DNA of 64,000 nucleotides from a virus, in IMG/VR virus record IMGVR_UViG_3300045988_074841. One strand, 5' to 3'. Positions 85 to 59,732 of the stretch are shown in pieces (position 1 is the stretch's first letter; every line of letters starts with the position of its first letter). The position numbers and the translations under genes are program-made. A model generated the notes under the pieces. It saw only the letters and a program-made list of their open reading frames with translations, was not told the DNA's origin and searched no databases.

Positions 85-3000
85 ATGGGTAATGCTTCTG
101 ACACTAAAGTCATTAGAGATGTTATTACTGAATTAAAAACTACTCCTGATTTAGATTTAGATGCTAAAGCCAAGAGTATTCTTGATGATTATGTAGCTAA
201 AGGATATAGTGAAACTGAAACTAAAAAACAAATAGATAGTGCTTTTAGACGTATTCGTAAGAGACAAGAAAAACTTATGAATAAAGAAAGTACTGTTGCT
301 TCTGTTTATTTTAGTAGTTTTGACCAAGAAGAACGTAATGCCAAATCTAAAAATGGTAAAGCTGTAGTATTTGATGATTCTTATAAAAAAGCTGTTAGTG
401 ACCTTCTTGATGTATACGCTAAAGATGCTGAACTTCCACAAATTAATGGTAAGTATTATGGTAATCTTATGAACCTTATGGATTATATTAAGTCTGCTTA
501 TGATGATTATTCTATGGCTGACTTTATGTTTAATAGTTTGTCTGCTTATCTTAATACTCCTGAAGGTCAAGCTAAATTTAATATTACTGATGCCAATGAT
601 GTTAGTAATCCTGTTGCTTTCTTAAATAACTTCCATAAATCTCAAGCTGAAAGAGATGCTGCTCTTTCTAATGGAACTGTTCATCAAGTTAATATGAATC
701 TTTCAGATTTTGGAACTGATGAATATATGAAAGAAAGTTATGCTGAACAAGTTAAACTTAAAAATGGCGATAAACTTACTATAGAAAGAGTTACTACAAG
801 TAAAGGTACTAGTCGTTTAGGTATCAAATCTAACGGTAAACTTGTTGGTAGTATATCAATTCCTTCTACAGGAGAAAGAGGAGAATATGTTCAAAAGAAT
901 GATGGACTTATTTATCATATAGATAAAGCTGATGGTTCTAAAGATGGAGCACTTAAACAAGTTCTTAAAGATATAGCTAGAAGTAAAACTCCTGAGCATG
1001 AAAAACTTAATGAAATTATTCATAAAGCTGCTTTTGATAAGTTTAACGCTGAACAGCTAGTTAATGAATTTAAGAGTAATCCTATTGTTCAAGATATGGT
1101 TAAGAATCATATGATTAATTTTGATGGAACTGGTCCTGAATATGAAGTTGCTCTTAATGGTCTTGCTAAACTTTGGAGATATAACTATAAAGTTCTTACC
1201 GAAGGAAGGGTTAATAAGTTTACTGGTGCAGTAGTTGCTAATTCTATTGATAAATGGTTTGATACTCTCCGTGAAAGTTATAATGAAACTAGTAAATTAG
1301 ATAACAATCCAAACATTGATATTGTAGCTAGTGATGTATTTGAAGGTGAGCTTATTCGTAGTAATGATGGTACTTTTAAAAGTGATGCTGAAACTTCTCT
1401 ACCTATTCAATTAGCTATCGCTAAAGATACTAAGTTTGAAATTGCTGCCAAATCTACTACTGGTGAATTTATTAATGGTATTGGAAGTAATAAGTTTCTT
1501 GTTAGTGTTGGTCGAACTTATGTTACTGTTCCTCGTAGTAACGGTACTGTAGATATTGTAAATGCTTATCCAGTGAGTTGGACAGGTGCTACATATTATA
1601 CAAAAGATGACAAACAACAACAAGTTGAGACAGGTAAAGACTTTAAGCAGCTTCAAAATGCTATAATTACTCAAATTAAAGATAGACTTGCTTCTATTAA
1701 TGATGGTGATTTTGCTGAAAATAGAAATAACTTTATTGATTTTATTGATAATCTTCTTAATATCAATAAAAATCCTATTTTCCTTAGTAAAGAACTATCT
1801 GTATTTAGAACTGCAAATATTCTTGGAATTAACTTTGGTAATAAGAATAATCAACTTCTTTTCTATAGAGATAAGAATGGTGATGGTGTAGGTCAAATAA
1901 TTAATAAAGTTGATGGTAAACCTAATTATATTTCTTACAATAGTGATTTATCTGCTGTAAGCGATAGACTTATTGAAGGAATAAAAAGTCTCAATTTCAA
2001 TATTAACTTTGCTGTTTTAAAGTCTGATAATAATCATAATATTCCTCTTCAAGGTATTACTAGTAGAACTACTGACGGTAAGTTTAAAATTACTATTCCT
2101 GAATATAAAGGGAAAAATGGTGTAAATCTTACTTATGATAGTTTTAAAGATTTTATTCAACAAAACAATCTTCTTAGAGTTAATATGGCTCAAGAAAACG
2201 GTAGTAATATTAGAAGAACTGCTATTAATAAACAAGGAGCTAATGCTAGATTTAGTTTTCAAGTAACAAATAAACAAGAAAGCCGCCCCGTAGAAGATGT
2301 TAGTGATAGTTATATTTCTAAAGCTGATGAAATTAAATCCATTGTAACATCTGATTCTACAGATAAAGGTTTTGAAGTTGCTAGTGCTCTTTTATTAGAT
2401 GATACATCTAAAGAGAAACTAAATAGTATTAAAAGTGATAGTTCTTTACGTAAACTTTTAGCTAAAGATATTATCTTTGACGAAGAATTTATGAGTAAAG
2501 AACATGCACAAGCTAATGCTGTTTGGAGCAAAACTAAAGGTGGTAAAGTTGTTATTGGTCAGAAATTCTTAGATATGATTAATAGTAAGAAACCTGGTGA
2601 AAAAGGTAGAGCTATTAGAACTTTGATGCACGAAAATCTTCATGGTTATATTGAAGATATGGCTAATAATAAACGTCATCCTAATGCGGTTGCTAATCTT
2701 AGAAATAGAATGCAAGATATTTATGATGATTTTGCTACTGCTATTAATCAAGATATTAATGATTTAAAAGCAGGAAATATTGATGAGATTAAACAACGTA
2801 GACATATTCAAGATAAAGCTACTCTTGAAAAGATTAGTGAGTGGCTTAATAATGTTAATACTTTTACTGCTGAAAGTTATGCTACTCGTGAGAATCCTCA
2901 AGATGCTCTAGAAGAATTTATTGTTGAATCTCTTACCAATGTTGATTTAATGAATTATCTTAATCAAGTTGACGCTGATGGTGGAGTAGTTAAAGGCAAT

Positions 3001-3447
3001 ACTATTTGGCAGAAAATACTCAAGTTTATTGGTGACTTGTTTGGTATTAATATTCGTCCTAATAGTCTTCGTGCTAAACAAATGGAAGCTCTTGGTGAAA
3101 TATTTAAGAATAATCAAGAAGCTGAAGTTAAAGCTGAAGAAAAAGAAGAAGAAGTTACTCAACCAACAACATCTTCTACGGGGCGTATAGAAGAAGTTGA
3201 AACAGAAACAGTTGCTGATAATACTAATAGTGTTATAGATAATGATGATGTTGGAAATGCTAATGAGGTGTTTGATATTAAGGATGAAGATGTTGATGCT
3301 GATGATGAATATGATGCTGATGAAAGTACTAGTGAAGAAGTAGCTTTCAATTCATTCAACTCAGCAATCGAATCTCTTCCGATGTCGGAACGTGCCAAAT
3401 TTGCCTCTCTCGTTAGCTCTGCTGCGATTTCGATGTCTTGCAAATAG
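85..3447 (+). CDS. Large virion/tail-associated protein with zincin-like HExxH motif (MHENLHG at about nt 2628-2642). The frame is open back to window position 1, so the gene may start upstream.
   Basis: 1120-aa ORF. HExxH read directly from the translation. Acidic D/E-rich C-terminus. It sits immediately upstream of the giant RNAP-like gene, as structural genes do in crAss-like phages. Contains two copies of the dispersed GC-rich motif, read in frame as SRPVEDV and SSTGRIEE. Confidence 0.6.
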   Translation: MGNASDTKVIRDVITELKTTPDLDLDAKAKSILDDYVAKGYSETETKKQIDSAFRRIRKRQEKLMNKESTVASVYFSSFDQEERNAKSKNGKAVVFDDSYKKAVSDLLDVYAKDAELPQINGKYYGNLMNLMDYIKSAYDDYSMADFMFNSLSAYLNTPEGQAKFNITDANDVSNPVAFLNNFHKSQAERDAALSNGTVHQVNMNLSDFGTDEYMKESYAEQVKLKNGDKLTIERVTTSKGTSRLGIKSNGKLVGSISIPSTGERGEYVQKNDGLIYHIDKADGSKDGALKQVLKDIARSKTPEHEKLNEIIHKAAFDKFNAEQLVNEFKSNPIVQDMVKNHMINFDGTGPEYEVALNGLAKLWRYNYKVLTEGRVNKFTGAVVANSIDKWFDTLRESYNETSKLDNNPNIDIVASDVFEGELIRSNDGTFKSDAETSLPIQLAIAKDTKFEIAAKSTTGEFINGIGSNKFLVSVGRTYVTVPRSNGTVDIVNAYPVSWTGATYYTKDDKQQQVETGKDFKQLQNAIITQIKDRLASINDGDFAENRNNFIDFIDNLLNINKNPIFLSKELSVFRTANILGINFGNKNNQLLFYRDKNGDGVGQIINKVDGKPNYISYNSDLSAVSDRLIEGIKSLNFNINFAVLKSDNNHNIPLQGITSRTTDGKFKITIPEYKGKNGVNLTYDSFKDFIQQNNLLRVNMAQENGSNIRRTAINKQGANARFSFQVTNKQESRPVEDVSDSYISKADEIKSIVTSDSTDKGFEVASALLLDDTSKEKLNSIKSDSSLRKLLAKDIIFDEEFMSKEHAQANAVWSKTKGGKVVIGQKFLDMINSKKPGEKGRAIRTLMHENLHGYIEDMANNKRHPNAVANLRNRMQDIYDDFATAINQDINDLKAGNIDEIKQRRHIQDKATLEKISEWLNNVNTFTAESYATRENPQDALEEFIVESLTNVDLMNYLNQVDADGGVVKGNTIWQKILKFIGDLFGINIRPNSLRAKQMEALGEIFKNNQEAEVKAEEKEEEVTQPTTSSTGRIEEVETETVADNTNSVIDNDDVGNANEVFDIKDEDVDADDEYDADESTSEEVAFNSFNSAIESLPMSERAKFASLVSSAAISMSCK
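2283..2297 (-). repeat. Dispersed GC-rich motif copy (ccgccccgtagaaga) inside the 1120-aa gene
   Basis: Read in frame as SRPVEDV. Confidence 0.8.
3172..3185 (+). repeat. Motif copy inside the 1120-aa gene. Flanking 7-nt inverted repeat tcttcta/tagaaga.
   Basis: Read in frame as SSTGRIEE. Confidence 0.8.
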
Positions 3448-3539: not shown

Positions 3540-6500
3540 ATGGCTTGTAATTTTAAAACAACAAGTGCTGGCACAAGCATTAAACGTAAGGTTGGAGCAA
3601 ATAATGCTCGTTTTGTAGCGTTAATTAGTCTTATTAGTAATCCTGAAACTGGAGGTTTTACTGATGAGTTTGTTAAGTATTATCAGAAAGTAAATCATAC
3701 TGATAATATTCCTAGTGTTGATAATTCCGAAAGAGGAGTTATCGCTAAAACTGCTATCCGTTATTATAATAGTATTCACTTTGATGTTAATGCTCAAAGT
3801 ACAGGTACTTATTATGATAAGGATGTAGATGCTTTCGGTTATAGTGATAGTCATGCAAAGGTATATGCTATTACTAGAGCAATTCCTAATATTATGCGTA
3901 GTATGTATGTTAGTGATATTAGAAGTGGAGAAATTGTTGACAAGGATTCAATTCTTGGCGATTTAATTAAACGTACAAAAGTTAGGATAACTAAGGATGT
4001 TGCTGCTAATTATCTTAAAGCTATTGGTAAACCTGCAACTAATGTTGAAGTTAATAAGATAGCTGATGCTCTTCTTAATAATAATGAAACTTATTATAAG
4101 AAAGATGAACTTATACTTGCTATAACTAAAGCTTTTGACAAGAATGGTGATGTTCAAGTTCAAAATACTTTTGCTATTTATAAAGATATATTTAAAGATA
4201 CTACTGGTAAAGATTTCTTTAATAGAGTTATTATTGCTGACCCTATTATTGGTAATCTAAAATATAGCGATGAAACTGAATCTAGTCTTGCTGAAGCTTA
4301 TGCTGAAGATTTTGATTCAGTAGATGATTCTTCTTATAATAATAACGAAGATGAAGATGTACTTACTGTAGGTGATAGACAAGATAATACTTGGAATGAT
4401 CATAGTGGTCTTGGTTCTAGTTATATGAAAGGTTTTGACCTTGATATTCGTCTTAGTCTTTCTATGATACCTAAACTTACTAGTAATACTGTTGATACTA
4501 AGACTTTAAAGTCTGGTAAAGTAAAGGATGTTTACGATTATGATAAAAACAATCCTACTGGTAATGTAGATTATATTGACGTAAAAGATATTATTAGTAC
4601 TCTTAGTGCTAAGAAAGATGTTTCTAATCTTAATACTTTTATTGATAGTGTAAAAGAAGCTAGTAATATTCCTGGTATGGAAGGTCTTATTAAACTTTAT
4701 AAAGACCTTACTTCTGATTTAGATTATGCTGCTCGTCTTTATACTCAATTCAAAACTGTAATTAACAAATATGAAACTCGTATTGCTGATGAGAATACAG
4801 CTATGAATAAGAGTAATAAGAATAGTAATGCTCAGCAAGTTCATGCTCTTAGTTTCCTTAATGATGCTAAGTTTACTCATATAAATACTGATTCTGATAT
4901 TACCAATAAACTTGCTAATGAAGTAGATGAAACTATTGTAGAATATACTCAAGCTCTTGCTGCTGGCGATGAGTTTGCTTTAGACCAAGCTAAACTTTAT
5001 AATACTATTGTTGATAGAATTGCTTCTCGCATTAAAGATTATTATCCTAGTGCAGATAAAGCTTCTATTGATAATTATGTTCGTCTTGCTAATAATGGTG
5101 AAGTTGCTACCAATATGCGTTATCTTACTGATAGTCTCAGAAAGATAGCTAAAGCTTCTGATGCTACTACTTCTCAGTATACTGAAAATCGTGATGCTAT
5201 TAGCGGTATTAACAAAGAAATTAGGAAACTTCAAACTAAAATTGACGCTCTCAACGAAGCTGGGGAACATAAAGGTATAGATAAAATCAATGAAGAAATA
5301 GATAAACTTGTTAGTCAAAGAGATAATATTCGATTTAGTGATTATCGTTCTCAAGATAGTATTACTCAGAGTATTGCTTTATCTGATAAACTTTATCCTT
5401 ATTCTTCTGTTAAAGTTGAACTTAATTCTCGTAATGGTTTGGGTAATCTTCAATCTGATATTATCAATAGTTCCATGATTACTTATCTTCTTAAAGTACT
5501 CAATAGTCCTAAGACTACTACTGATGAATTAGGTAATACCGCTCCTGAGTCTCTTGTTAACTTTGCTAAGTTTAAGTTTAAGAACAATCAATATAATCTT
5601 AGTAATATTCTTATTGAGACTAGAGAAAATGGTAAGATTGTAAATTATGGTCTCTTTTATTATGATGCTGACAAACAGAAATATGGTGTTACTAATTATG
5701 CTTCTGGTTTACTTAACGTTGCATTATTTAATGGAGCTGTAAAAACTGATGAAGGTACAGGTATTACTTATGCTCAAATGAGTAAAGGCGATTATGTTTA
5801 TACTGCTTTTGCTAATTATTTTAATAGCGATAAAAATATTGATGCTGATAGAGTAACTAATAGCATTCCTCTTGCTAATTACTTTATGAGAACTCCTTCT
5901 GATGCTCCTAAAACATTTGTAGTTCGTGCTCCACGTTATCATATAACTAAGAGTAATCCAATTAGAACTGTAACAAATGCTGCTGATGTAGATAATTATA
6001 TTAAGAATTATGTTGCAGAGCATATTGCTAGTATGTCTGAAGCTGCATTTAATCAAGCTAATCCTAGAGCTAAATTTATTCAACTTGAAGATAATCGTAG
6101 TGATCGTGCTCAAATTACTAGAGATTTAACTGATAATAATATTACTCGTTCTGTATATGAGAATGAGATTATTCGTAATGATGGTAAAACTGCAACTATT
6201 GGTTATCAATTTACTGATGAAGAAGGTAATGTAAATAAATATATTATTACCGGTTCTATTCGCCACGTAAAAGGTATGAATAAATTTGTTATTGAGAATG
6301 GTAAAGCTACTATTCTTGATAATAATGAAATGAGAGATAATCTTCGTCCTATGATATATGATAAGTATCGTAAACAAGCTTATCGTAACGGTAGAATTGG
6401 TGATGTTCAAGTTGATTATAAAGTTAATAGAGAACATCCTATTTATAAACAATTTAGAAAGATATTTAATCAAGAGTTGACTAATATGGCTGAGGCTATT

Positions 6501-9500: not shown

Positions 9501-12500
9501 ACTTTCCCTGATGTAGGTAGTAATTATAAGACTGGTGTTGCATTTATGATGCACCCTGCTGTAACTCGTATAGTTAATGCTTATAATAAAGGTAAATCTG
9601 TTTATAGTGAAGATTCTGCTCAACCTATAGTTGATGCTCTTAAAGAAGTAGCTGAAGAACTCGATGTTGATAGTAGTTCTTTATATTCAGGTAAAATGGT
9701 AGTTGAAGCTATTAATGATAAACTTGGTACAAATTATAGTTTTATTAAAAACAACAATATTGTTCTTGATGAAGAGCAATTAGCTAGTGATGTAAAGAAT
9801 GCAAACAATGTTTCTCTTGCTCGTGAAGTAGAGATTCTTATGGCTTACAATGATATTAATCGTTTAGCTGATGTAATTCAGAAAACTGTAAGAGTTTGTA
9901 ATCCTGATAAGTTTGGAGCTAAACAAACTATATTTGCTACTAATGAAGTATTTGAAACTATTAAAGATATAATTAATAGTAAACAAGCTAAAGTACTTAG
10001 TAAGAATGATATTCCTTTCCTTGAAAGTATTTATCCTGGACTTATTAAAGATGGTGTTGTAGATAAAGATAATTATGTAAAAGATACTCATGAATCTGCT
10101 TATCCTTCTCTTAATGCTTTCTTAAAGTATGCTTCAGTTACTAGTACTGTAGTTAATAGCATGCTTTTTGAAACTCAAAATTCTGCTTTTGTAACTACTA
10201 TTAAAGCTCTTAGTAAAATGCTTCCTACTCCTCGTAAACTTACTGAGAAAGAATATAATGATTATGAGAAGTATGTTATTGGTGCTGCTTATAATAATGC
10301 TGACGGAATTAGATTAGGTTATACTATCAACTCTTCTACGGGGCGTCTTGAATCAACTAAAACAAGTGATTTACAAGAGCGTCTTCGTATTTATGGATTT
10401 AGTGGTAGTCCAGTATTTCATTTTGATGTTGAAGATATTACTGAACCAACTCAAGATGAAATTGATGCTTGGTCTAAACTTACTCCTGCTCAAAAAGTTG
10501 CTTGGTTACAAAGTAAAGCAGAAGATGGTGGTATATTTAGTAAACTTAAAGTTGACCTTCAAGATAATTATCGTGTTGGTAATAAAGAATGTGCTGCTCA
10601 ATCTATTCGTTTTAATGATGATAATGTAGATACTGAAACTGCTTACAATCTTTTTGAAACTGCTACTAAGAGTCAGAATCCTCTTGTTAAACTTGCAGCT
10701 ATAGACCTTATTAAATATGCGTTTGTAGTTGAAGGTTTCAAGATGCGTCGTAATGGTATTAATAAGATTATTAAGAATAGTACTCTTCGTGATGATACTT
10801 TGTTTGCTAATCAAGATGGAGAACCTACTAGTCTTCTTAGTCAAATTGATGCTAATTTTAAGCATATTACTTATGATGATTATCGTGATGATTATTTAAG
10901 AAGTCATTCTGATAATGGTATGGTTCCAAAAAGAACTGTAAAGAAGAAAAGAGTAGGTAAAATTTGGGTTAATGAACTTAGTGCTCCTGATGGAGTTATA
11001 ACTCTTAATGTTCCTTCTCGTAGAAATGATATTACAGAAGCAGATATTAATGATGAATTTGCTGCTACTAAAACTATTGCAGAAGAGACGGAAATCCGCC
11101 CCGTAGAAGATGTAGTAGATAATAAACTTCAAGTTGTTCAAGATAATACTACTGCTCCAGATGATACTAAACTTGCTGTTAAGTATGGTATTTATAATGC
11201 TTGGACTGATAGAGTTAATCCTTATGTAAAACTTACTTTTAAGAATCGTGGTGTTAATACTACGAATCTTTATAAGACTGTTCGTCATGGTGATATAATA
11301 TTTGCTTATCCTGTTAGTATGCTTGAGGAAAACGAACATGGTATTGTTTCTGTTAATCAAGCTAATAATACTCTTTATAGTGAGATGTATTATAGAACTA
11401 TTATTGATAATAAACTTCAAGGTAATCAACTTACTAAAGAAGAAGCAGATAAACTTCGTAAAGAATACGCCAATGAACGAGCTATTTCTTCTAAAAGTAG
11501 AGTTAATACTGGTTTTGATATTAATAAAGATAGAACTACTGGCGATATAGGTGGTGCTCGTGATGCTTATAGTAAAATTATTAATCTTATTAAGAATGAT
11601 GCTAAAGGTATTCAAATTATAAACAATAGGTATCTTTATAATCGTGTTAGTGAAGGATTTGGTAATTTCCAAATTATTCATGATGTAATTGATGGTAATG
11701 AAGTTACTAAGAAAATTGCTTTTGCTAAAGAAACAAAAGTAATATTTGATTCTGAAGGTAAAGTAATTCCTTATCCTGTTAAAGTTATTCAGATTATTCC
11801 TTCTACTAATGATAAAGAAAGTACATCTGTTGAATATAATTTTGACATGTTTACTGATATTAATCGTAGAGCACATGAAGGTGATGTCAATGCTTATCGT
11901 GAAGTTCAGTTTATGAATAATAATGGTTTTGAGAATGTTAGTACTGATTATACAAATATGTCTCCTAAACTTTATGAAGCTATTGATAGATTCACTAGTG
12001 CTACAGCTAAGAAACTTATCAGTGATGCTGACCAATTCTATAAAAAAGAAGATGGAACTTATGCTTCTATATTTGCTCCTGAAACTATAGAAATGATTCG
12101 TAATAATCCTAGTGAGCAAAGACGTTTTCAAAAGTTACTTCTTGATACAGATAGTATTATTAATAAATATGGTACTATATTTGATGTTGTAGTTGACGAA
12201 AATGAGAATCCTGAAGTAATTGATTTTATTAATCATATTAAGAAAACTATTGGAGATTTACGTAACAAACTTAATCTTAGTACTCTTAATGAAAGATTTG
12301 CTAGAGAAGTTGTTGCTAAATGGTCTAATGACCCTAATATTCAAAATGGTTTAGTTGATATTTGTAATGGTTATCATGCTGTTACTTGGTGTGATGCTTG
12401 GATTGGAGATTTACAAGATACTGGTAATAGTCTTATTCAAAATATTAGCAAACATATAGTTGATGATATTAGTGCTAAAGATATGCAAGCTGCTAAAGAT

Positions 12501-16914: not shown

Positions 16915-16929
16915 CCGCCCCGTAAAAGA
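16915..16929 (-). repeat. Motif variant (ccgccccgtaaaaga) immediately after the giant ORF stop
   Basis: One mismatch. Confidence 0.7.
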
Positions 16930-17070: not shown

Positions 17071-17141
17071 TGCTCTATGGTGTAATGGTAGCACTACAGA
17101 TTTTGGTTCTGTCAGAGCAGGTTCGAATCCTGCTAGAGTAA
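17071..17141 (+). tRNA. tRNA-Gln (anticodon UUG). No encoded CCA.
   Basis: Manual cloverleaf: acceptor TGCTCTA/TAGAGTA (1 G-U), D-arm GTGT/GCAC, anticodon stem ACAGA/TCTGT with loop TTTTGGT (34-36 = TTG), T-arm GCAGG-TTCGAAT-CCTGC, discriminator A. Confidence 0.75.
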
Positions 17142-17226
17142 CAAATGCTATAAGTTCTAAACTACTTGCTAAATTAATTGTTTATAGGGTTTAAATGTGG
17201 TTTAAGGTGATATTTATAAAGTTCTT

Positions 17227-20048: not shown

Positions 20049-20063
20049 TCTTCTACGGGGCGG
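20049..20063 (+). repeat. Dispersed GC-rich motif copy (tcttctacggggcgg), intergenic
   Basis: Exact 15-mer. Forms an inverted pair with the degenerate copy at 20106-20120. Confidence 0.8.
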
Positions 20064-20105: not shown

Positions 20106-20120
20106 CCTCCCCGTAAAGGA
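20106..20120 (-). repeat. Degenerate motif copy (cctccccgtaaagga), inverted partner of the copy at 20049-20063
   Basis: Reverse-complement variant tcctttacggggagg. Confidence 0.5.
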
Positions 20121-24122: not shown

Positions 24123-24773
24123 TTACTTTTTATGTTTAACAAAATCTTTTCCAGCAGCATATTCTTCAGGAGAAATAGCTACTACATTTTCTTTATTTTC
24201 ACTAGTAACAGGAATTTCTTTATTGTCAGCAGATAAATTATACACATATCCATCTTCGTCTTTACAAAGATGGTCAAAACCATAGGTAGCTATAATTTCA
24301 TTAGTTACATCTTGTCTACTAGTTACTTCAATAAGAACAAGTTTATCTGTTTTAACAAGAGTAGAAATATCAATGAAAGTTGACTCTACCCGCCCCGTAG
24401 AAGGTATGGTAGGTTCATGCCCATCATTACTAGCTTGCCAAGCTAATAACATATTACAATAATTACCTAAATCTTGAATAGTATCAAACATACTTTCATC
24501 TTCAACATTAGGATTATTATAACCATTAAAATCATCTTCAATAAGATGAACTAAACGATTAGCTTTATCATACATTCTAGCTAGACCATATCTATAGCCT
24601 AGTTTATCACAACCTTTATTGAAAGCATTACCATAATCAGCATTTTTCTTAGCCATAAGATTAAGCATTTTATTTTGCTGGTCACGTAATGCAACAACTT
24701 CAGGAGTTACAAGATGTTTTGGAACTACTCCATTAAGAGCAGCTTTCCAATAATTTAAATCACTTTCTGTCAT
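24123..24773 (-). CDS. Hypothetical nucleotide-metabolism-associated protein
   Basis: 216 aa next to thyX. Carries a motif copy in frame as PSTGRVEST. Confidence 0.4.
   Translation of the reverse strand: MTESDLNYWKAALNGVVPKHLVTPEVVALRDQQNKMLNLMAKKNADYGNAFNKGCDKLGYRYGLARMYDKANRLVHLIEDDFNGYNNPNVEDESMFDTIQDLGNYCNMLLAWQASNDGHEPTIPSTGRVESTFIDISTLVKTDKLVLIEVTSRQDVTNEIIATYGFDHLCKDEDGYVYNLSADNKEIPVTSENKENVVAISPEEYAAGKDFVKHKK
24390..24403 (-). repeat. Motif copy inside gene 24123-24773
   Basis: STGRVEST. Confidence 0.8.
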
Positions 24774-27569: not shown

Positions 27570-27584
27570 TCTTCTACGGGGCGG
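27570..27584 (+). repeat. Dispersed GC-rich motif copy, intergenic
   Basis: Exact tcttctacggggcgg. Confidence 0.8.
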
Positions 27585-34344: not shown

Positions 34345-35760
34345 TTAATCAACAATACAATAATCATTATTATTATCAACTTTAACATTTCTATCAAAAT
34401 CGTTAATTATTGTATGATTAGCTGGAACAGTCCTATCTTCTAGTTTTTTCTCCTCTAACGTGCTTTTATAGAATAAGGTATATAATAGTACCTCATTACT
34501 GAAATGAACCTTAGAAAGCCTATAGAAATAGCTCTCAATAGTATCACATAGCGGAGAAGTGATTATAACCAAATCAATATCAACATCTAAAGACTTATCA
34601 GGCGACGCACCACAAGAAATTACATTTATCTTATGACTATTCATAAGTTTCTGTGCAAGTTTCTTTTGAGCAATAACACCTAGAAGTTTAGGTTGACCTT
34701 TCTTTGGACCACTCTTTATAAGAATAGGATTTCCATAATCATCTACAGCAGGAACATTATCTACTTTATCATGGCAATTAGCACAAATTCTTTTACCAAA
34801 TTTATCATTAAGATAATCAGTAACAAGATTAGCAAATTCACCATACTTGTTTATAATGAGTATATTCTTGTCTAAATTATCATTGACTATATCTAAGATA
34901 TTACTAAGTTTATCTTTAGAACTAGCAAGTTTAGTACTACGTTCTCTAATAATATTATAAATACTATCAGCACGTTCTTTAATAGCAGAAGGACTATACA
35001 GTTTATCTATGTCTCTATTAAATTCTGAAGACATATCTAAATGATTATCCCAACCATTAGTACGAGCAATAGCATCACATATCATCATACTAGAACAATT
35101 AGTAGCACTATTTCCCAATCTAGCATACTTGATATTATCAAAGTTACCAAATATAGCTAGAGCAGTAGAAATTTCCCTATTATAATAAGTCATTTCTTTA
35201 TCTAATTCAGTATCAGGTGTTATAGTTAATCCTACCAAACACTCTTTTACGGGGCGGTTAGTTCTAACTTCATCAATAACATTTTGACTAAAATTACCAA
35301 TACTAGGAGCAACAGTATAGAAATCATCCATAGTTTTATTATCTAGTAGTTTACTAAGAATTACTAGATTAAACTTAGACTTTTCTATCATAGCTATATG
35401 TACAAAATGAAATATACTAGGATTATAAATTATAGTCAGTAAAGGACTATAATCATTAATATGTTCAGCAGCATATTCAGTAGTTAAAATCCTAAGACTT
35501 CCATTATGCATTACAGTACGAAAAGAATTATTCCATACTTCATTATTCAAAGTAGTTAGATAACTTTCAATACTACTTCTATCTGCAAAATCTTTCACAA
35601 TAATAACAACACTAGTCGTAGGAGACTTATTGTAAAGTTGTGGAAGAATATAAAGCAGAGGTCTTAGAGCATCAAAAGGAGCAGGTATTACAAAAGTACC
35701 TATTCCTTTATTTAATCTCCAAGCATCAACAGCATTTAAATAAACTTGTTCTTCTGTCAT
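34345..35760 (-). CDS. Hypothetical helicase-like protein (degenerate; no intact Walker A seen)
   Basis: 471-aa ORF. The C-terminal half resembles an SF2 helicase C-domain. Carries a motif variant in frame (NRPVKE). Confidence 0.4.
   Translation of the reverse strand: MTEEQVYLNAVDAWRLNKGIGTFVIPAPFDALRPLLYILPQLYNKSPTTSVVIIVKDFADRSSIESYLTTLNNEVWNNSFRTVMHNGSLRILTTEYAAEHINDYSPLLTIIYNPSIFHFVHIAMIEKSKFNLVILSKLLDNKTMDDFYTVAPSIGNFSQNVIDEVRTNRPVKECLVGLTITPDTELDKEMTYYNREISTALAIFGNFDNIKYARLGNSATNCSSMMICDAIARTNGWDNHLDMSSEFNRDIDKLYSPSAIKERADSIYNIIRERSTKLASSKDKLSNILDIVNDNLDKNILIINKYGEFANLVTDYLNDKFGKRICANCHDKVDNVPAVDDYGNPILIKSGPKKGQPKLLGVIAQKKLAQKLMNSHKINVISCGASPDKSLDVDIDLVIITSPLCDTIESYFYRLSKVHFSNEVLLYTLFYKSTLEEKKLEDRTVPANHTIINDFDRNVKVDNNNDYCIVD
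35243..35257 (+). repeat. Motif variant (ctcttttacggggcgg) inside gene 34345-35760
   Basis: NRPVKE. Confidence 0.7.
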
Positions 35761-38030: not shown

Positions 38031-38589
38031 TTATTAATTTAATTATTTCCATTCCATTATAATTATTATCTTTACTAGCAGTAAGCCATTTAACTAGACG
38101 ATTACGAAATTCATTATATTTATTATCATCTATAAACTTAATAAAAGGAGAGTAATTTGTACTGTAAACATAAGGGGCTATATAATATAGTTTATCTTTA
38201 CCTTTAGTAATATCAAAACCAAAATTAGTAGCAGCATTACCAAGAAGCATTATCTTCTTAATATTATTAATTCTAATATCAGCAAATGTATGAAGTATAC
38301 ATCTATTAGCTATATATTTATTTACAGGACAACGTTCATCAAGCTTACAACGAATAAGAGGAACAATATAAGGGTCTAGTTGTTCTAGACCCCCCGTAGA
38401 AGATGTGATAGTTTCCTTTACTATTTCCACATACTTACTAAATGTCATTCCTCTATTCTTATAAGCATTATAATCAACATTAGGTACAACAATAATCATA
38501 CCTGACATTGGATTACCAACACCATCAAGACATTTGCACTTAGTATTAAACATACCTAAAGCACAATCATCACACACTTTAGGAATCAT
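38020..38589 (-). CDS. Uracil-DNA glycosylase-like protein (family 4/5-like), tentative
   Basis: 189 aa. N-terminal Cys cluster CDDCALG...C.C and a GxxxxVVPN-like segment. Carries a motif copy in frame (SSTGGLEQ). Confidence 0.35.
   Translation of the reverse strand: MIPKVCDDCALGMFNTKCKCLDGVGNPMSGMIIVVPNVDYNAYKNRGMTFSKYVEIVKETITSSTGGLEQLDPYIVPLIRCKLDERCPVNKYIANRCILHTFADIRINNIKKIMLLGNAATNFGFDITKGKDKLYYIAPYVYSTNYSPFIKFIDDNKYNEFRNRLVKWLTASKDNNYNGMEIIKLINDS
38390..38403 (-). repeat. Motif variant (ccccccgtagaaga) inside the UDG-like gene
   Basis: SSTGGLEQ. Confidence 0.7.
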
Positions 38590-42436: not shown

Positions 42437-42781
42437 CTAGCCTCCCCGTAAAAGGAATGTTAGTATGTAATCATTTTCCTTTTCTAACTTATCCCATACA
42501 TTAAGTATGAAATCAATACCAGCATGTCTAACAGCAATTATATCTTTAATTACAGTAGTCATATCATGCTGACTTAATTTCATAAGAAAATATATAGTTC
42601 TAAAACCTCTACGAGTATTAAGAGGAAAGTTATAAGGAATAATATAACCTTTACGTTTTGAAGAACATTTATAAAAGTCTTTCTTATAAACATAACCATT
42701 ACATTGTACAACTTCTCCAAAATCAGGCGCACAACAATGTCTTATATCAAATTGATAAAGACAACTATTACATAGTATCAT
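42437..42781 (-). CDS. Hypothetical Cys-rich (zinc-finger-like) protein. The last codons are supplied by a motif copy (..LLRGG*).
   Basis: 114-aa ORF. N-terminal CNSC...CC...C cluster. Confidence 0.4.
   Translation of the reverse strand: MILCNSCLYQFDIRHCCAPDFGEVVQCNGYVYKKDFYKCSSKRKGYIIPYNFPLNTRRGFRTIYFLMKLSQHDMTTVIKDIIAVRHAGIDFILNVWDKLEKENDYILTFLLRGG
42441..42455 (-). repeat. Motif variant (cctccccgtaaaagg) at the 3' end of gene 42437-42781
   Basis: Encodes the C-terminal LLRGG-stop. Confidence 0.6.
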
Positions 42782-44779: not shown

Positions 44780-44794
44780 TCTTCTACGGGGCGG
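44780..44794 (+). repeat. Dispersed GC-rich motif copy, intergenic
   Basis: Exact tcttctacggggcgg. Confidence 0.8.
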
Positions 44795-49130: not shown

Positions 49131-49667
49131 ATGGTTGATTTAAAAGTTAATTATCTTGGTCTTAATCAGACCTTTCGTATGCCTACTAGTATGAGTGAAA
49201 TTAACATGAATGTAATTTCTGATTATGTTAAGCATGTTAATGTTAGTAAGGATTATGCTCTTATTGCAGTTGTATTTAAAGAGCGTCCTATTACTATTGT
49301 AAGTGTTAGTAAGCAGAATAAGAACGCAAGTGTAAGCGGTGTTGCTGTTATGATTAAGAGTAATACTGATGATGAGTTTATTAAAGACATTAAACTTGGT
49401 GAAACTATAGTTATTTCTCCTAGTGATATTGCTATGGGACATCATGTTAATTCTCCTGCTAATCCTCTTACTCCTGGTTTCTTACTTAATCTTCTTCAAA
49501 CTAATGCTGATTTAAATAAGAAACTTATGGGTATTGGAGTTCCTACTTATTTCGTAGATTTTAAGATTGTTCCAGTTTGTAATATTCATGGTTCTGTAGG
49601 AAAGTATATTCCTGTTAGTCAATATTATATTGCTCCTGATGCTGGAGAAACTGATATGGGTAAGTAA
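49131..49667 (+). CDS. Hypothetical protein
   Basis: 178-aa ORF. A motif copy lies 15 nt after the stop. Confidence 0.5.
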   Translation: MVDLKVNYLGLNQTFRMPTSMSEINMNVISDYVKHVNVSKDYALIAVVFKERPITIVSVSKQNKNASVSGVAVMIKSNTDDEFIKDIKLGETIVISPSDIAMGHHVNSPANPLTPGFLLNLLQTNADLNKKLMGIGVPTYFVDFKIVPVCNIHGSVGKYIPVSQYYIAPDAGETDMGK

Positions 49668-49681: not shown

Positions 49682-49696
49682 TCTTCTACGGGGAGG
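49682..49696 (+). repeat. Dispersed motif copy (variant tcttctacggggagg), intergenic
   Basis: One mismatch from the consensus. Confidence 0.7.
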
Positions 49697-52623: not shown

Positions 52624-52883
52624 TGAGTAATTTAATTAAAGAAATTATTAAAGGTGCAGCAATGTTTTTTGTTTTTGGCATTAGTGCTATTGTAATTATT
52701 AGTCTTATAGATAATAAAAAGACTTATACTATTGTTGAACAAAATGTTGAAATACAGAAGCATAATGATAGTTTAAGAATTGAAGTTGATAATTTAGATA
52801 GTATTAAAAATGCAAAAGTTATTGAAGTTAAAACTCTTGATAATGATAGTACTATTAAGTTGTTCTATAAACTCATCAAGTAA
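52623..52883 (+). CDS. Small membrane protein (holin/spanin-like), N-terminal TM
   Basis: 86 aa. TM GAAMFFVFGISAIVIISLI. Start overlaps the stop of the putative lysin (ATGA). Confidence 0.45.
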   Translation: MSNLIKEIIKGAAMFFVFGISAIVIISLIDNKKTYTIVEQNVEIQKHNDSLRIEVDNLDSIKNAKVIEVKTLDNDSTIKLFYKLIK

Positions 52884-53166
52884 ATCATTAACATCTTCTA
52901 CGGGGAGGATAGAACAAGATAGTGTAACTATAGCGATTAGTGATATTCGTAAAGCTAATGCTAAACTAATAGAATTAAATTATGAAAAGGATATTAATAA
53001 GAATCTTCGACAAATTATTAGAAATGATAGTATTCTTGCAGAACAAGCTAGACAAAGATATATACTATTGGATAGGTCATGTAAGAAAGTAACAAAACAA
53101 CGTAATGTTGCTTGTTGTAGTGCTGCTGGTGCTATTATATTACTAATTTTAAGTTTAATAAAATGA
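52810..53166 (+). CDS. Small protein with C-terminal TM (possible spanin-like partner). The start is uncertain because it overlaps the previous ORF by 74 nt.
   Basis: 118-aa ORF with C-terminal AAGAIILLILSLI. No alternative in-frame start downstream of the overlap. Contains a motif copy (SSTGRIEQ). Confidence 0.3.
   Translation: MQKLLKLKLLIMIVLLSCSINSSSKSLTSSTGRIEQDSVTIAISDIRKANAKLIELNYEKDINKNLRQIIRNDSILAEQARQRYILLDRSCKKVTKQRNVACCSAAGAIILLILSLIK
52894..52908 (+). repeat. Motif variant (tcttctacggggagg) after or within the lysis-cassette ORFs
   Basis: SSTGRIEQ in ORF 52810-53166. Confidence 0.7.
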
Positions 53167-58367: not shown

Positions 58368-59732
58368 ATGTTTGTATTTCGTAATAGTATTGGGTTCGGT
58401 CAGCATCATCGTTTGATGGTTGAACTTGATAATATTGATTTTGGAAATGGCGGTGGTAATGGTAGTGGTACTAACGCCAATAATAACCAAGGTAACGGAG
58501 GCGGCACTGATAATAATAACGGTGGTGGTAATGGCTCTGGTGATAATAAAGATGGTGACGGTAAAGAGGGTGATGGAAATGATAAAGATAATCCTGAGCC
58601 TGATAATGCCAATGATAATCCTGATAATAAGGATAATAACAAAGACAATCCATCCAACTCTTCTACGGGGGGTCTTGAGGTAGGTACAAATGTCGAGTTT
58701 GAAGGCAAAAAGTATACTGTTGCTGAAAATGGAGACCTTGTAGATGCAGATGGTAAAGTTTTTAAAGAAGCTAAAGATGTTGACGAGTGGATTAAATCAC
58801 TCGAAGTTGATGAACCTGGAGCTGAGGTAAATATTGAAAATATTCGTAAAGCTATGAATATTGATATTACTGATGAAAATGGTAATCCAGTTGAATTTAC
58901 TGATGACATTGAAGGTATTAAGAGTTACATTAATTCTGCTATTGAACTTAAATCAAATGAAGTAGCTGTTGCTGCTGTTAATAAAGTATTTGTTGACAAT
59001 CCTATTCTCAAGCAGTTTGTTGATTATCTTACTGTAAATGGTGGTGATTCTCGTGGTTTTGGTGAACGTCCTGACCGTTCAGGTATTACTGTTGATGAGA
59101 AGTCTGAAGAGCAACAGATTGCTATTATTAAAGCTGCTGCTAAAGAATTTGGTAATGCTTCTCTTAATGATAATTACATTAAGTATCTTAAAGATTCTGG
59201 TGGTCTTTATGATGAAGCTAAAGTTCAACTTGCTAACCTTCAAAATGCTGATAAACAACGTGATGAAGATGAAGCTAAACAAGCTGAAGCTTATCGTCAA
59301 AAACAAGAAGCTGAAACTATTGCTTATTGGAAAGGTATTAAAGATACTATTGATAAACGTGAAATTGGAGGATATAAACTTCCTGAATCTCTTGTTAAAG
59401 AAGTTAATGGACAGAAAGTTACTGTTACTCCAAACGATTTCTATGATTATCTTTCTTGTGGTATTAAAGATGAAAATGGTAATATTGCTACTGCTTATGA
59501 GCGTGCTCTTGCTAATCAATCTCCAGAGGAAGCTACTAATCAAGAATTACTTAGTGCTTGGTTAATGTTCACAGGTGGAACTTATAAAGACCTTGTTAAA
59601 ATGGCTATTAATAATGAGCAGGTTAAAACTTTAAAGCTTGTTGCCAAAGGAAATAAAGGTCATGGTGCTGTACGAATTACTAAGCCACAAACTAATAATA
59701 ATAAAGCTATTGATAATATTCAATTTAGCTAA
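58368..59732 (+). CDS. Structural/scaffold-like protein with an N-terminal G/N/D-rich low-complexity region
   Basis: 454 aa. Residues about 25-105 are GNGGGNGSG...DNKDN repeats. Contains a motif copy (SSTGGLEV). Confidence 0.5.
   Translation: MFVFRNSIGFGQHHRLMVELDNIDFGNGGGNGSGTNANNNQGNGGGTDNNNGGGNGSGDNKDGDGKEGDGNDKDNPEPDNANDNPDNKDNNKDNPSNSSTGGLEVGTNVEFEGKKYTVAENGDLVDADGKVFKEAKDVDEWIKSLEVDEPGAEVNIENIRKAMNIDITDENGNPVEFTDDIEGIKSYINSAIELKSNEVAVAAVNKVFVDNPILKQFVDYLTVNGGDSRGFGERPDRSGITVDEKSEEQQIAIIKAAAKEFGNASLNDNYIKYLKDSGGLYDEAKVQLANLQNADKQRDEDEAKQAEAYRQKQEAETIAYWKGIKDTIDKREIGGYKLPESLVKEVNGQKVTVTPNDFYDYLSCGIKDENGNIATAYERALANQSPEEATNQELLSAWLMFTGGTYKDLVKMAINNEQVKTLKLVAKGNKGHGAVRITKPQTNNNKAIDNIQFS
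58659..58672 (+). repeat. Motif variant (tcttctacgggggg) inside 58368-59732
   Basis: SSTGGLEV. Confidence 0.7.

Follow-up and report, generated by a model that had tools for sequence, protein, structure and literature searches.

The window analysed here, a 64-kb stretch of DNA from a crAss-like gut phage, contains 18 copies of a short motif that are spread over both strands. The same motif is present in eight Intestiviridae genomes from three subfamilies, including p-crAssphage and the cultured crAss002; the set comprises the window, cr8_1, cr271_1, ctcc615, p-crAssphage, cr3_1 and crAss002, plus IMG/VR relatives. The copies in the window are given below, with genic and intergenic positions assigned from a greedy ORF map.

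2284..2297, minus strand: exact core in ORF 85-3447, antisense, R-P-V-E-D; orthologous copies in cr8_1 and ctcc615
3172..3185, plus strand: exact core in ORF 85-3447, sense, S-S-T-G-R; restricted to the window lineage when orthologous positions are compared
6261..6274, minus strand: degenerate copy CCTTTTACGTGGCG with three mismatches, in the giant RNAP gene, antisense
10332..10345, plus strand: exact core in the giant RNAP gene at about aa 2265-2266, sense, S-S-T-G-R
11097..11110, minus strand: exact core in the giant RNAP gene at aa 2520, antisense, R-P-V-E-D; within a variable stretch specific to the window
16916..16929, minus strand: one mismatch, intergenic, antisense orientation, starting 3 nt past the giant RNAP gene stop codon (2 bases between); orthologous in cr8_1, cr271_1 and ctcc615
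20049..20062, plus strand: exact core, intergenic; forms a convergent inverted pair with the next copy, as its left arm
20107..20120, minus strand: degenerate copy with three mismatches, intergenic, right arm of the 20049+/20107- pair, 6 nt past the stop of ORF 20126-20410
24391..24404, minus strand: one mismatch, in ORF 24123-24773, sense, P-S-T-G-R; orthologous in cr8_1
27570..27583, plus strand: exact core, intergenic, antisense orientation, 17 nt past the stop of ORF 27601-27957; orthologous in cr8_1, cr271_1 and ctcc615
30434..30447, minus strand: exact core in ORF 30047-31273, sense, I-F-Y-G-A; orthologous in cr8_1, cr271_1 and p-crAssphage gp21, with its own variant in each
35243..35256, plus strand: one mismatch, in ORF 34345-35760, antisense, R-P-V-K-E; orthologous in cr8_1, cr271_1, ctcc615 and p-crAssphage gp17
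38390..38403, minus strand: one mismatch, in ORF 38020-38589, sense, S-S-T-G-G; identical codon position in all four Obtuvirinae genomes, motif missing from the p-crAssphage UDG
42442..42455, minus strand: degenerate copy with three mismatches at the 3' end of ORF 42437-42781, L-L-R-G-G-stop; orthologous in cr8_1 (71506+)
44780..44793, plus strand: exact core, intergenic, the copy nearest to the extended consensus; shared with close IMG/VR relatives, counterpart in none of the four other complete genomes
49682..49695, plus strand: one mismatch, intergenic, sense orientation, 15 nt past the stop of ORF 49131-49667; orthologous in cr8_1, cr271_1 and ctcc615
52894..52907, plus strand: one mismatch, in ORF 52810-53166, sense, S-S-T-G-R; orthologous in cr8_1, cr271_1, ctcc615 and p-crAssphage gp78
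58659..58672, plus strand: one mismatch, in ORF 58368-59732, sense, S-S-T-G-G; orthologous in cr271_1, ctcc615 and p-crAssphage gp75, decayed in cr8_1

ORFs 30047-31273, 34345-35760 and 38020-38589 are orthologues of the primase genes annotated in relatives and of their SNF2 ATPase and UDG genes, respectively; none of the three has a Pfam match here.

The core, TCTTCTACGGGGCG, occurs in eight exact copies, one fewer than had been counted in a preliminary description of this DNA, and is absent from 100 dinucleotide shuffles. When up to three mismatches are allowed, the 18 copies compare with a shuffle mean of 0.43 and a maximum of 2, which bears out the earlier statement that recurrence by chance is excluded. 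All 17 copies reported before were recovered, the addition being the degenerate one at 6261-6274. The plus-strand positions and that of 38390 had been given exactly, but most minus-strand starts were 1–2 nt off and are corrected to 2284 (from 2283), 11097 (from 11095), 16916, 20107, 24391, 30434 and 42442. The extended consensus for the window, a-C-A-TCTTCTACGGGGCG-G-c-T-a-g-a, agrees with the ~22-nt form proposed at the time; written with its flanks as aCA-TCTTCTACGGGGCGGCT-aga, it is a compact, asymmetric DNA word. The motif measures ~20–26 bp, its headline form having 22 letters, and an alignment of the flanks revealed no conservation beyond ~15 nt on either side. Family-wide, the core reduces to YACGGGG, with a pyrimidine tract before it and, after it, a G-rich tail that differs between lineages. 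The mean density on both strands combined is ~1 per 3.5 kb in this phage and its relatives.

The earlier division into 6 intergenic and 11 intragenic copies holds, with 12 intragenic once the eighteenth is included. As only 10.7% of the window is intergenic, six copies there represent an enrichment (P = 0.009), and they usually lie just past stop codons, away from downstream starts. Across genomes, about half to two-thirds of the copies are intragenic (p-crAssphage was counted by hand). Hand counts from site lists and from ORF and annotation maps gave 10 sense to 8 antisense copies in the window and 14 to 14 in cr8_1, and the orientation of the motif is thus unrelated to gene direction. This independence and the intragenic share argue against an ordinary promoter, one of the roles suggested initially. 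Six of the eight sense copies are read in a single frame, as had been noticed, giving [S/P]-S-T-G-[R/G]; the remaining two yield I-F-Y-G-A and L-L-R-G-G-stop. The latter is the 42442 copy, in line with the earlier remark that one copy supplies stop-proximal codons: the TAG of the motif (gcTAGa) is the stop codon of ORF 42437-42781, and the cr8_1 orthologue uses it likewise. A frame preference of the antisense copies also stands, although it comprises four of four copies, not three of three, and reads R-[P/H]-V-[E/K]. This preference needs no explanation beyond the antisense consensus itself, in which a single frame is free of stops.

Each complete genome carries 17–31 copies, and each has its own variant of the YACGGGG core, even at identical codon positions. 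Thirteen of the 18 window sites (12 loci) have a counterpart at the orthologous position and in the same orientation in other genera, and p-crAssphage holds four of these 13. The convergent pair 20049+/20107- is kept in cr8_1 as 41+/111-; it had been described as inverted, which is correct, but its second arm is degenerate. In the UDG, SNF2, primase, gp75-like and gp78-like genes, the codons carry the genome-specific variant, and the amino acids track the DNA. Sites substitute codons one for one. In the RNAP gene, the window has lost two ancestral sites and gained three others, while copy number is maintained through this turnover, and the 10332 copy is a same-length substitution with respect to its orthologues, contrary to the idea that the motif arises by in-frame mini-insertions. 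Genome-specific variants, even at shared codons, point to selection at the DNA level and to a trans-acting reader, and they support the earlier suggestion that the coding sequence merely tolerates such selection. As first proposed, a phage factor plausibly recognises the motif, and we consider it very probable that the motif is a cis-acting signal under DNA-level selection, whose phage-encoded, sequence-specific reader has changed its specificity in step with all the copies of a given lineage.

The arrangement on the two strands is regular. Among 127 same-strand gaps in the genomes analysed, the minimum is 1,517 nt and the median 6.5 kb, whereas copies on opposite strands approach each other to within 31 nt. 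All 23 neighbouring pairs closer than 1 kb are inverted; ~17 same-strand pairs would be expected, and none is seen. Per-strand spacing has a CV of 0.28–0.70, with values no higher than 0.46 in the four genomes richest in sites. It departs from random placement (P ≤ 0.0012) and from permuted strand labels (P between 0.002 and 0.046) in six of six genomes, statistics that are not fully independent of each other because some sites are orthologous. The spacing is also more regular than a model that imposes only a minimum gap for the window (P = 0.013), cr8_1 (P = 0.0008) and p-crAssphage (P = 0.001), but not for cr271_1. Circular shifts indicate that the two strand sets are roughly independent. 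Very tight inverted pairs (<300 nt) nevertheless number 13 against ~5 expected (P = 0.008 for p-crAssphage), an excess beyond simple independence that may reflect paired binding. The site layout of crAss002 is the same. We infer that the signal is rather more probably polar than not, acting only on something that travels along the DNA in one direction; polarity would explain why the phage keeps two independent, evenly spaced sets, one per strand, so that from any point a properly oriented copy would be met within a few kb in both directions. One-strand gaps of 38 kb in cr271_1 and 27 kb in ctcc615 show that this coverage is not strict. The family-wide spread, the variants that co-evolve within each genome and the two evenly spaced strand sets had all been overlooked in the preliminary description.

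A scan of 185,579 bacterial species genomes (596 Gb) with a 17-mer returned 42 single matches, approximately the number expected by chance. The motif is private to the phage, which speaks against the uptake-signal-like or host sequence considered earlier. It also appears to be an undescribed genome-wide putative signal: we found it described nowhere in the literature that was searched, in keeping with the initial remark that no such crAss-like element had been described.

Several other readings have to be weighed. One is that a phage polymerase starts at the motif on each strand. The motif would then be either a promoter of the giant virion RNAP (possibly on single-stranded DNA) or an initiation site for the phage primase and replisome, and both strands would be primed or transcribed at regular intervals regardless of genes. 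The design recalls promoters of the T7 group, with a contiguous, asymmetric word of ~20–23 bp (~20 bp here) in which a pyrimidine/AT-rich part precedes a terminal G run (GGGG), with ~15–30 copies per genome, similar to the present number, and with positions kept while the sequence co-evolves genome-wide with the reader of each lineage. A polar-looking signal that covers both strands evenly would suit this role, and single-stranded or denatured DNA serves the crAss-like virion RNAP as a template in vitro (10.1101/2020.03.07.982082). We nevertheless regard it as unlikely. T7-type promoters lie between genes and are co-oriented with them, whereas about half of our copies oppose the local genes and many are intragenic, even within the 13-kb RNAP gene; convergent pairs are only 58–210 nt apart, and the virion RNAP of these phages is a giant two-barrel polymerase rather than an enzyme of the T7 type. 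Early transcripts of the virion RNAP of the related phage phi14:2 have no detectable common upstream motif (10.1101/2020.03.07.982082), and the first halves of phi14:2 and of the Suoliviridae genome cr131_1 are without a comparably enriched word, although this polymerase is reported to be conserved across crAss-like phages. Conservation does not reach past ~15 nt on either side of the motif, and there is no AT-rich unwinding element. The closest documented class is that of site-specific single-strand nicks in virion DNA (T5, the Pseudomonas phage tf/Rembedalsseter family and phiKMV-like phages). The word associated with them is short and occurs ~13 times per 45 kb (~1 per 3.5 kb), both within coding sequence and outside it; 61 related phages share it, and its function is enigmatic (PMC11780129). 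Nicking is inherently strand-specific and would fit the per-strand layout. However, in the documented family the motif is confined to a single strand and clustered in one part of the genome (PMC11780129), while ours is strand-balanced and evenly spaced. Nicks at the frequent tight inverted pairs, 31–124 nt apart, would create fragile near-double-strand breaks. No nickase candidate is conserved; the window lacks the HNH gene that cr8_1 and cr271_1 have beside the ligase gene. Nicks on both strands seem improbable.

A non-polar site for an architectural or regulatory phage protein (IHF/HU-like or operator-type) would organise or condense the genome at ~3.5-kb intervals, and the strand pattern would arise only from selection against close direct repeats. 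Such selection could indeed produce the same-strand repulsion with no polar function involved, since direct repeats carry a deletion risk in a phage that encodes RecT. With pairs merged, all loci are evenly spaced (CV 0.28–0.43 in five of six genomes), the excess of tight inverted pairs is consistent with dimeric binding, intergenic copies mostly avoid downstream starts, and IHF-like genes are annotated in these phages. Dispersed asymmetric operators are moreover known as the stoperators of Cluster A mycobacteriophages and the C1 operators of phage P1, which likewise comprise many scattered copies, some of them intragenic, whose sequence co-evolves with a phage-encoded binding protein. Yet stoperators follow the direction of transcription and are found in temperate phages, which carry an immunity repressor, and neither system offers a counterpart to the strand-specific regular spacing. 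No lysogeny genes are reported for crAss001 and crAss002 (PMC8042965). In site-rich genomes, regularity within a strand (CV ~0.3–0.45) exceeds that of all sites together (0.48–0.71), and in three genomes it surpasses the pure minimum-gap model; copies 30–100 nt apart would be redundant for spacing, and for a simple architectural protein, 20 contiguous asymmetric bp would make a long site. We thus hold this explanation to be about as doubtful as polymerase start sites. A selfish or neutral repeat (mobile element, GC-cluster-like sequence, gene conversion) or a host-derived one (uptake signal, REP, host Chi) is very improbable. There is a resemblance to the GC clusters of yeast mitochondria and the palindromic elements of Rickettsia: the word is GC-rich whereas the genome is AT-rich, both orientations occur, and loops tolerate it. 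However, there is no insertion signature, and no terminal repeats, target duplications or structure were found at the copies; together with the same-length sites, the positions and orientations conserved across genera and subfamilies, the regular strand-specific spacing and the chance-level bacterial matches, this largely refutes such an origin, including the footprints of a tiny mobile element proposed earlier. Least probable of all is a signal in RNA or protein, either an RNA element that is structured or bound, or a pentapeptide under selection (SSTGR/RPVED). The frame preferences and the intergenic copies near the 3' ends of genes would favour it, but sense and antisense copies are equally frequent, stop codons dictate the antisense frame, and one third of the copies are non-coding. 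Codon alignments largely refute it: the peptide varies with the DNA variant of each genome, and the p-crAssphage gp78 copy appears to be read in a frame other than that of the window. RNA folding showed no recurrent hairpin or structure at the copies, for which reason a hairpin was rejected, and an Rfam search returned no match except tRNA.

The best reading, which we put forward tentatively as a whole, is that of a polar, phage-private, Chi-like signal controlling a nuclease or helicase that tracks along the DNA, in a genome presumably packaged by the headful mechanism. Chi, recognised by RecBCD or AddAB, is a polar, G-rich word for an enzyme that travels along DNA; it is used in one orientation, tolerated in genes, selected at the DNA level genome-wide, and marks 'self'. 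With one copy per ~6.5 kb and orientation, the motif has a density of the same order as Chi in E. coli. Known Chi sequences, in contrast, are 5–8 nt long and abundant in the host genome, while the motif spans 20–26 nt and is missing from bacteria; we know of no Chi site near 20 nt. Chi is also skewed with replication, in contrast to the even, strand-balanced spacing seen here, and the motif, unlike Chi, differs in sequence between phage genera, which implies a phage-encoded reader. One-directional action at an asymmetric site of ~20–23 bp, in both orientations and including closely spaced inverted pairs, has a further parallel in Tus-Ter and the inverted Ter pair of plasmid R6K, if the motif is polar as we suppose. 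Ter sites, however, are few and form a trap around the terminus, whereas the 17–31 sites of these phages are distributed evenly over the genome.

Under the Chi-like reading, the moving reader would be a helicase-nuclease that resects from DNA ends or breaks. Candidates are the SF1 RecD/PIF1-like helicase encoded at 39517-40989 (Pfam AAA_30, E = 1e-17) and the PD-(D/E)XK exonuclease orthologue at 50895-51884, which would cooperate with RecT (33352-34284). The latter two are orthologues of the annotated p-crAssphage proteins (50–52% identity), and neither has a Pfam match; when 50 window ORFs were scanned against Pfam and PHROG, no DNA-binding candidate for the reader emerged. Alternatively, host AddAB or RecBCD might be redirected by a phage factor. 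Headful packaging has been reported for crAss002, a relative of the window phage (PMC8042965). Even two-way coverage is sensible for a headful-packaged, circularly permuted genome, because any sequence can become a free end. There, the word would function as a private Chi site that halts or switches the degradation of phage DNA, and the spared end would be passed on to annealing, circularisation and recombination-dependent replication, while host DNA, which is without the word, would not be spared.

The 14-nt core of the motif, TCTTCTACGGGGCG, occurs in 8 exact copies in the 64-kb window and in none of 100 dinucleotide-preserving shuffles. When up to three mismatches are allowed, the window contains 18 copies, whereas the shuffles average 0.43 and never exceed 2. 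All 17 copies listed in the preliminary description were recovered; the list lacked a degenerate eighteenth (6261-6274, minus strand), its nine exact cores become eight on recounting, and most of its minus-strand starts were displaced by 1-2 nt. The aligned copies define a word of about 22-26 nt, in which aCA-TCTTCTACGGGGCG-GcTaga comes after a G-poor tract of C, A and T. An analysis of flank composition and a search for a second motif at 130 sites, extending to 70 nt on each side, found nothing conserved beyond about 15 nt. The window has a G+C content of about 30% and derives from a crAss-like phage, with a giant RNAP ORF of 4,457 aa (3540-16913) and a Crassvirus major capsid protein (59758-61236; Pfam E=4e-46). 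Its closest reference genome is cr8_1 (Intestiviridae, Obtuvirinae), with 75% identity over only 16% of the first 20 kb.

On a greedy ORF map of the window, 12 copies are intragenic and 6 intergenic. Intergenic sequence makes up only 10.7% of the window, and intergenic copies are thus enriched (P=0.009). Most of these lie less than 20 nt past a stop codon, in either orientation, and at copy 42442 the stop codon is supplied by the motif's own TAG. The reading-frame preference noted earlier is confirmed, as six of the eight sense copies are read [S/P]-S-T-G-[R/G] (the remaining two being I-F-Y-G-A and L-L-R-G-G-stop) and all four antisense copies R-[P/H]-V-[E/K]. Much of this preference is forced, because the antisense consensus is free of stops in one frame only and TAG closes one of the sense frames.

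Folding of the 18 sites as RNA and as DNA, on both strands, revealed no recurrent hairpin involving the motif and no common structure (mean z of -0.9 for the motif strand and -0.7 for its complement), and Rfam and tRNA scans of the window returned a tRNA-Gln(TTG) alone. With no shared fold across the 18 sites and no Rfam family except tRNA, the motif does not fit an intrinsic terminator or structured RNA element. The tRNA-Gln gene (17071-17142, plus strand, anticodon TTG) is located just downstream of the giant RNAP gene, a placement conserved in cr8_1 and cr271_1. It encodes an ordinary Gln tRNA and not a stop-codon suppressor; long ORFs are intact under the standard code window-wide, and the motif has no complementarity to it beyond 6 nt. 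A likeness of the motif to the 16S rRNA 341F region and to the IHF consensus was dismissed by eye as coincidence.

The 17-mer TCTTCTACGGGGCGGCT was scanned against 185,579 bacterial and archaeal species, with one genome each (596 Gb). The scan returned 42 stretches in unrelated taxa, with one match apiece, where about 70 would be expected by chance, and none of the species genomes had multiple matches. This speaks against a host uptake signal, REP or BIME, which would require hundreds of host copies, and leaves the earlier candidate of an uptake-signal-like or host sequence unsupported; the sole Segatella match is a CRISPR spacer. In the isolate genome of Segatella sinensis CLA-AA-H174, contig_59 carries a CRISPR array (7260-8000 of the stretch examined) with the 37-nt repeat GTACGAGACCATCGTCCACTACAATAAGGATTAAGAC. 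One of its spacers equals window 45442-45480 at 100%, and the last visible spacer starts with ACATCTTCTACGGGGCGGCT, a motif copy; these spacers point to Segatella/Prevotella as the likely host of the phage. Also among the 17-mer matches are two AT-rich contigs (26-27% G+C) binned in an 'uncultured Treponema sp.' MAG. The first, CAVGYR010000001.1 (52.9 kb), aligns with window 15.6-26.3 kb at about 65-79% identity; judging by this alignment it is a crAss-like phage, probably mis-binned as Treponema. The second, CAVGYR010000065.1, did not align with the window at E<1e-5; its low G+C and single core match are the only reasons for listing it.

Alignment of orthologous proteins indicates how sites arise and disappear. 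At residue 2266 of the giant RNAP, the window sequence NSSTGRLE is a same-length swap for VPGQGF and similar sequences in the orthologues, and two RNAP sites common to cr8_1, cr271_1 and ctcc615 (LYGGA sense; [RS]PV[EK] antisense) have decayed in the window. Sites in the RNAP thus come and go by substitution, with copy number maintained. Those in the UDG, SNF2 and primase genes occupy aligned codons in all genomes compared, and neither terminal repeats nor flanking conservation was found around the sites. Same-length substitutions, aligned codons and the lack of flanking repeats speak against a MITE, a GC-cluster or an in-frame mini-insertion. The mini-insertion or tiny mobile element suggested in the preliminary description is not supported, as the RNAP, UDG, SNF2 and primase sites are not extra sequence.

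The word extends well beyond the window. In IMG/VR, many contigs about 90-97 kb long contain the exact core with matching flank contexts; single 14-mer matches in GC-rich contigs were discarded as chance. Reference genomes, scanned whole or by half (50 kb for cr3_1 and crAss002), each carry their own variant, and the 7-mer TACGGGG is nearly confined to the motif in each of them.

Table. Variants of the motif in reference genomes (genome; subfamily; variant; sites).
cr8_1; Obtuvirinae; caTA-CCTTTTACGGGG[C/G]GGCTAGA; 28-29 sites
cr271_1; Obtuvirinae; TCTTCTACGGGGGAGCT; 17 sites
ctcc615; Obtuvirinae; CCTTCTACGGGGGAGsT; 19 sites
p-crAssphage (Carjivirus communis); Crudevirinae; tCCATCCTC[T/C]ACGGGG[G/A]GT[C/A]TA; 31 sites
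cr3_1; Crudevirinae; TTCCTCTACGGGGGArC; 17 sites in 50 kb
crAss002 (cultured); Churivirinae; CCTyTA[C/T]GGGGGAA; 14 sites in 50 kb

When the window sites were projected on the other genomes, 13 of 18 (12 loci) had an orthologous counterpart, oriented as expected, in one or more other genera. p-crAssphage has four of them too, within the genes for SNF2 and primase and the gp75-like and gp78-like genes; its copy in the last of these is apparently in another reading frame, in an uncertain alignment. Codon alignments place the motif at an identical codon position, with each genome showing its own variant. The SNF2 site, for example, reads AAC CGC CCC GTA AAA GAG in the window, AGC ACC CCC GTA GAA GAA in cr271_1 and TTA CTC CCC GTA GAG GAA in p-crAssphage. 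At the UDG site the peptide tracks the DNA variant (T-SS-TGG-LE, T-PF-TGG-LE, SS-TGE-L), and the p-crAssphage UDG has an unrelated loop at this position. Positions that are old, together with sequence that has changed in concert across each genome, argue for a cis signal that co-evolves with a trans-acting reader, and against both a recent mobile element and a selected peptide. We consider it very probable that the motif is such a signal with a co-evolving phage reader.

Two motif sub-variants coexist in p-crAssphage (BK010471), CTCTACGGGG in 16 copies and CTCCACGGGG in 15, with no obvious link to strand or position by inspection, and crAss002 also mixes two, TACGGGGG and TATGGGGG. Such mixtures could be served by one tolerant reader or by two. 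The ACGGGG-type motif is absent from the first 100 kb of crAss001 (Steigviridae, MH675552). Another word, aaTCyCTTCTGGAGta, is dispersed over this genome, and its 9-mer CTTCTGGAG occurs 27 times on both strands versus 0.36 expected; by inspection, same-strand copies lie at least 1.5 kb apart, and first-half neighbour pairs closer than 1 kb are all inverted. It may represent a shorter Steigviridae analogue of the motif system, and contains CTGGAG, the site of a type IIS/IIG restriction enzyme. No word of similar enrichment was found in phi14:2 or cr131_1 (Suoliviridae), each searched over its first half.

The orientation of the motif is unrelated to gene direction and is balanced inside each transcription block. 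Hand counts from site lists and ORF or annotation maps gave sense:antisense values of 10:8 in the window, 14:14 in cr8_1, 10:7 in cr271_1 and 10:9 in ctcc615, and the plus:minus strand counts are 9:9 in the window, 14:15 in cr8_1 and 13:18 in p-crAssphage. Spacing statistics were computed for six genomes (the window, cr8_1, cr271_1, ctcc615, p-crAssphage and half of cr3_1). No same-strand gap (n=127) is shorter than 1,517 nt and the median is 6.5 kb, with per-strand CV values ranging from 0.28 to 0.70, and not above 0.46 in the four site-rich genomes. In all six genomes the minimum same-strand gap exceeds that of random placement (P at most 0.0012) and that obtained by permuting strand labels over the observed positions (P 0.002-0.046). 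Copies on opposite strands, by contrast, approach to 31 nt. Each of the 23 neighbour pairs closer than 1 kb is inverted, with convergent and divergent arrangements both represented; among pairs at this distance, about 17 same-strand and about 18 opposite-strand cases were expected, and 0 and 23 were seen. The six tests are not fully independent, as some sites are orthologous, yet p-crAssphage, which has only a handful of sites in common with the Obtuvirinae, shows the pattern when taken by itself.

Compared with a model that imposes a minimum gap and nothing else, per-strand spacing shows surplus regularity in three genomes, namely the window (P=0.013), cr8_1 (P=0.0008) and p-crAssphage (P=0.001); cr3_1 and ctcc615 trend the same way more weakly, and cr271_1 does not. 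Circular-shift tests indicate that the plus and minus sites are placed more or less independently. Pairs less than 300 nt apart outnumber expectation, with significance reached in p-crAssphage only (P=0.008). The layout of crAss002 agrees, with a same-strand minimum of 2,007 nt and opposite strands to 36 nt, and the tightest same-strand pair seen among IMG/VR relatives of the window is about 1.25 kb. Strict alternation of orientation was rejected: the switches at 22 of 28 neighbour steps in cr8_1 are striking, but pairs at least 1 kb apart switch in just 63 of 100 cases, and the pattern is better described as same-strand repulsion with independent strands. Iterons or RepL boxes do not fit either, given that the analysed genomes have no same-strand copies closer than 1.5 kb and that RepL is not detectable in every genome with the sites. 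The motif is a phage-private, co-evolving cis signal acting at the DNA level, and its placement is strand-specific, regular and independent of genes.

This layout suggests that, at any point of its genome, the phage requires a properly oriented copy no more than a few kb away in each direction, and the signal is somewhat more likely polar than not. Polarity in both directions, with indifference to genes, is the mark of enzymes that track along DNA from an end, a break or a fork, and we therefore propose a private punctuation resembling Chi. On phage DNA, a helicase-nuclease meeting the motif would be attenuated or switched, and the DNA end would then be passed to annealing, circularisation and recombination-dependent replication; host DNA lacks the word. 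Headful packaging is reported for crAss002 (PMC8042965), and such a mechanism implies circularly permuted genomes in which any sequence is a possible free end. The relevant gene set is encoded in all Intestiviridae examined, and in the window comprises the following candidates.

39517-40989, SF1 RecD/PIF1-like helicase (Pfam AAA_30, E=1e-17)
50895-51884, orthologue of the annotated PD-(D/E)XK exonuclease of p-crAssphage and crAss002, without a Pfam match of its own
33352-34284, orthologue of the annotated RecT, without a Pfam match of its own

The full Chi-like mechanism nevertheless remains tentative. Against it stand the length of the word, far above that of known Chi sites, and the absence of a reader candidate from the ORF scans. 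In cr271_1 and in ctcc615 one strand is loosely covered, and avoidance of direct repeats in a RecT-encoding phage could mimic polarity. That Intestiviridae, among them the most abundant human gut phage, mark their own DNA with a private polar word of ~22 bp, arranged in two interleaved strand-specific lattices, by which a phage DNA-tracking enzyme tells phage from host DNA in a Chi-like self-recognition owned by the virus, is a rather speculative extension.

Pfam and PHROG scans of 50 window ORFs gave no DNA-binding candidate for the reader. RepL was rejected in this role, since no homologue is detectable in cr8_1, cr271_1 and ctcc615 despite their sites. The window does encode a distant RepL homologue of 199 aa (46841-47440, plus strand; p-crAssphage gp43 E=3e-11, gp88 E=9e-6), which sits in a gene-poor switch region separating two transcription blocks, and in p-crAssphage a divergent motif pair lies ahead of each of two RepL genes. 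An HNH endonuclease beside the ligase gene was rejected as a nickase because the window lacks that gene. It adjoins the DNA ligase gene in cr8_1 (85628-86299, plus a small ORF) and in cr271_1 (74894-75502); in the window (27957-27966) the ligase gene (27966-29165) directly abuts the next conserved ORF, with no HNH gene between. Such presence/absence polymorphism is typical of a homing endonuclease. Near the thioredoxin-like and dUTPase-region genes, an ORF of 91 aa (18331-18606, minus strand) has a sub-threshold Pfam match to STY4199-like HEPN (E=1e-4, 22 bits; cut-off 25).

Several other readings have to be weighed against a Chi-like signal. Start sites for the giant RNAP or primase, one set per strand, would account for the long asymmetric consensus and for genome-specific variants at orthologous sites, as in T7-type promoters and their co-evolution. 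However, the copies are neither upstream of genes nor co-oriented with them: about half are antisense (10:8 and 14:14 sense:antisense), 12 of the 18 window copies are intragenic, and convergent pairs occur. Moreover, phi14:2 and a Suoliviridae genome have no comparable word in their first halves, and the virion RNAP of phi14:2 showed no common promoter motif (10.1101/2020.03.07.982082), so that we consider start sites unlikely. Nick sites are the closest documented class, and the motifs associated with them in T5, tf/Rembedalsseter and phiKMV resemble ours in their equal density and indifference to coding sequence. Yet the WACTRTGAC motif of Pseudomonas phage Rembedalsseter has all 13 of its 13 copies on one strand (PMC11780129), whereas the present motif is balanced between strands and its tight inverted pairs would be fragile, which makes nicking improbable. 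A non-polar architectural or operator site combined with direct-repeat avoidance is plausible, although regularity per strand exceeds regularity overall and tight pairs would be redundant. A selfish, host-derived, RNA-level or peptide-level origin is largely refuted by the motif's anatomy and folding, the host-genome scan, the substitution pattern and the orthologous, co-evolving sites.

Chi sites, recognized by RecBCD or AddAB, comprise 5-8 nt and are strongly over-represented in the host chromosome, and we know of no Chi near the motif's length. In contrast, the motif spans about 20-26 nt, and its 17-mer is at chance level in bacterial genomes; by analogy it would nonetheless work most like Chi, as a polar, G-rich, self-marking signal. 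In its evolution, with fixed positions and co-evolving sequence, it is most similar to T7-group promoters or stoperators, but differs from stoperators and other dispersed repressor operators in that its orientation is not tied to the direction of transcription. The motif thus fails a defining feature of Chi, nick motifs, T7 promoters and stoperators each. Dispersed phage cis signals with a dedicated reader are a known class, and there is a realistic chance that this one is mechanistically new.

The preliminary description knew of no crAss-like element of this kind, and our string and keyword search of the literature, whose coverage is incomplete, likewise returned none; prior mention elsewhere is possible. 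Term look-ups in Dutilh 2014, Yutin 2021 and the papers on crAss001 and crAss002 turned up no such motif. The motif is a real, conserved and strand-organised signpost system across the Intestiviridae, p-crAssphage and a cultured member included, and far broader than could be seen from the window. Although it is conserved throughout the genomes of a whole family that counts among the most common viruses of the human gut, prototypical crAssphage included, the motif has apparently gone unreported. Its design, which joins two even strand-specific sets, co-evolution of sequence at fixed positions and selection overriding protein sequence, is without exact precedent among phage signals. The lineage-specific words offer a compact signature for classifying Intestiviridae contigs and call for caution in assembly and primer design. 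To our knowledge, almost nothing is known of the DNA metabolism of crAss-like phages, and the motif provides a concrete cis-acting handle on it, be it in replication, recombination, packaging or transcription. Its function is directly testable in cultured crAss002, which has the motif, and in crAss001 with its possible analogue. Should it prove Chi-like, no self-marking system of this type owned by a virus would have preceded it.
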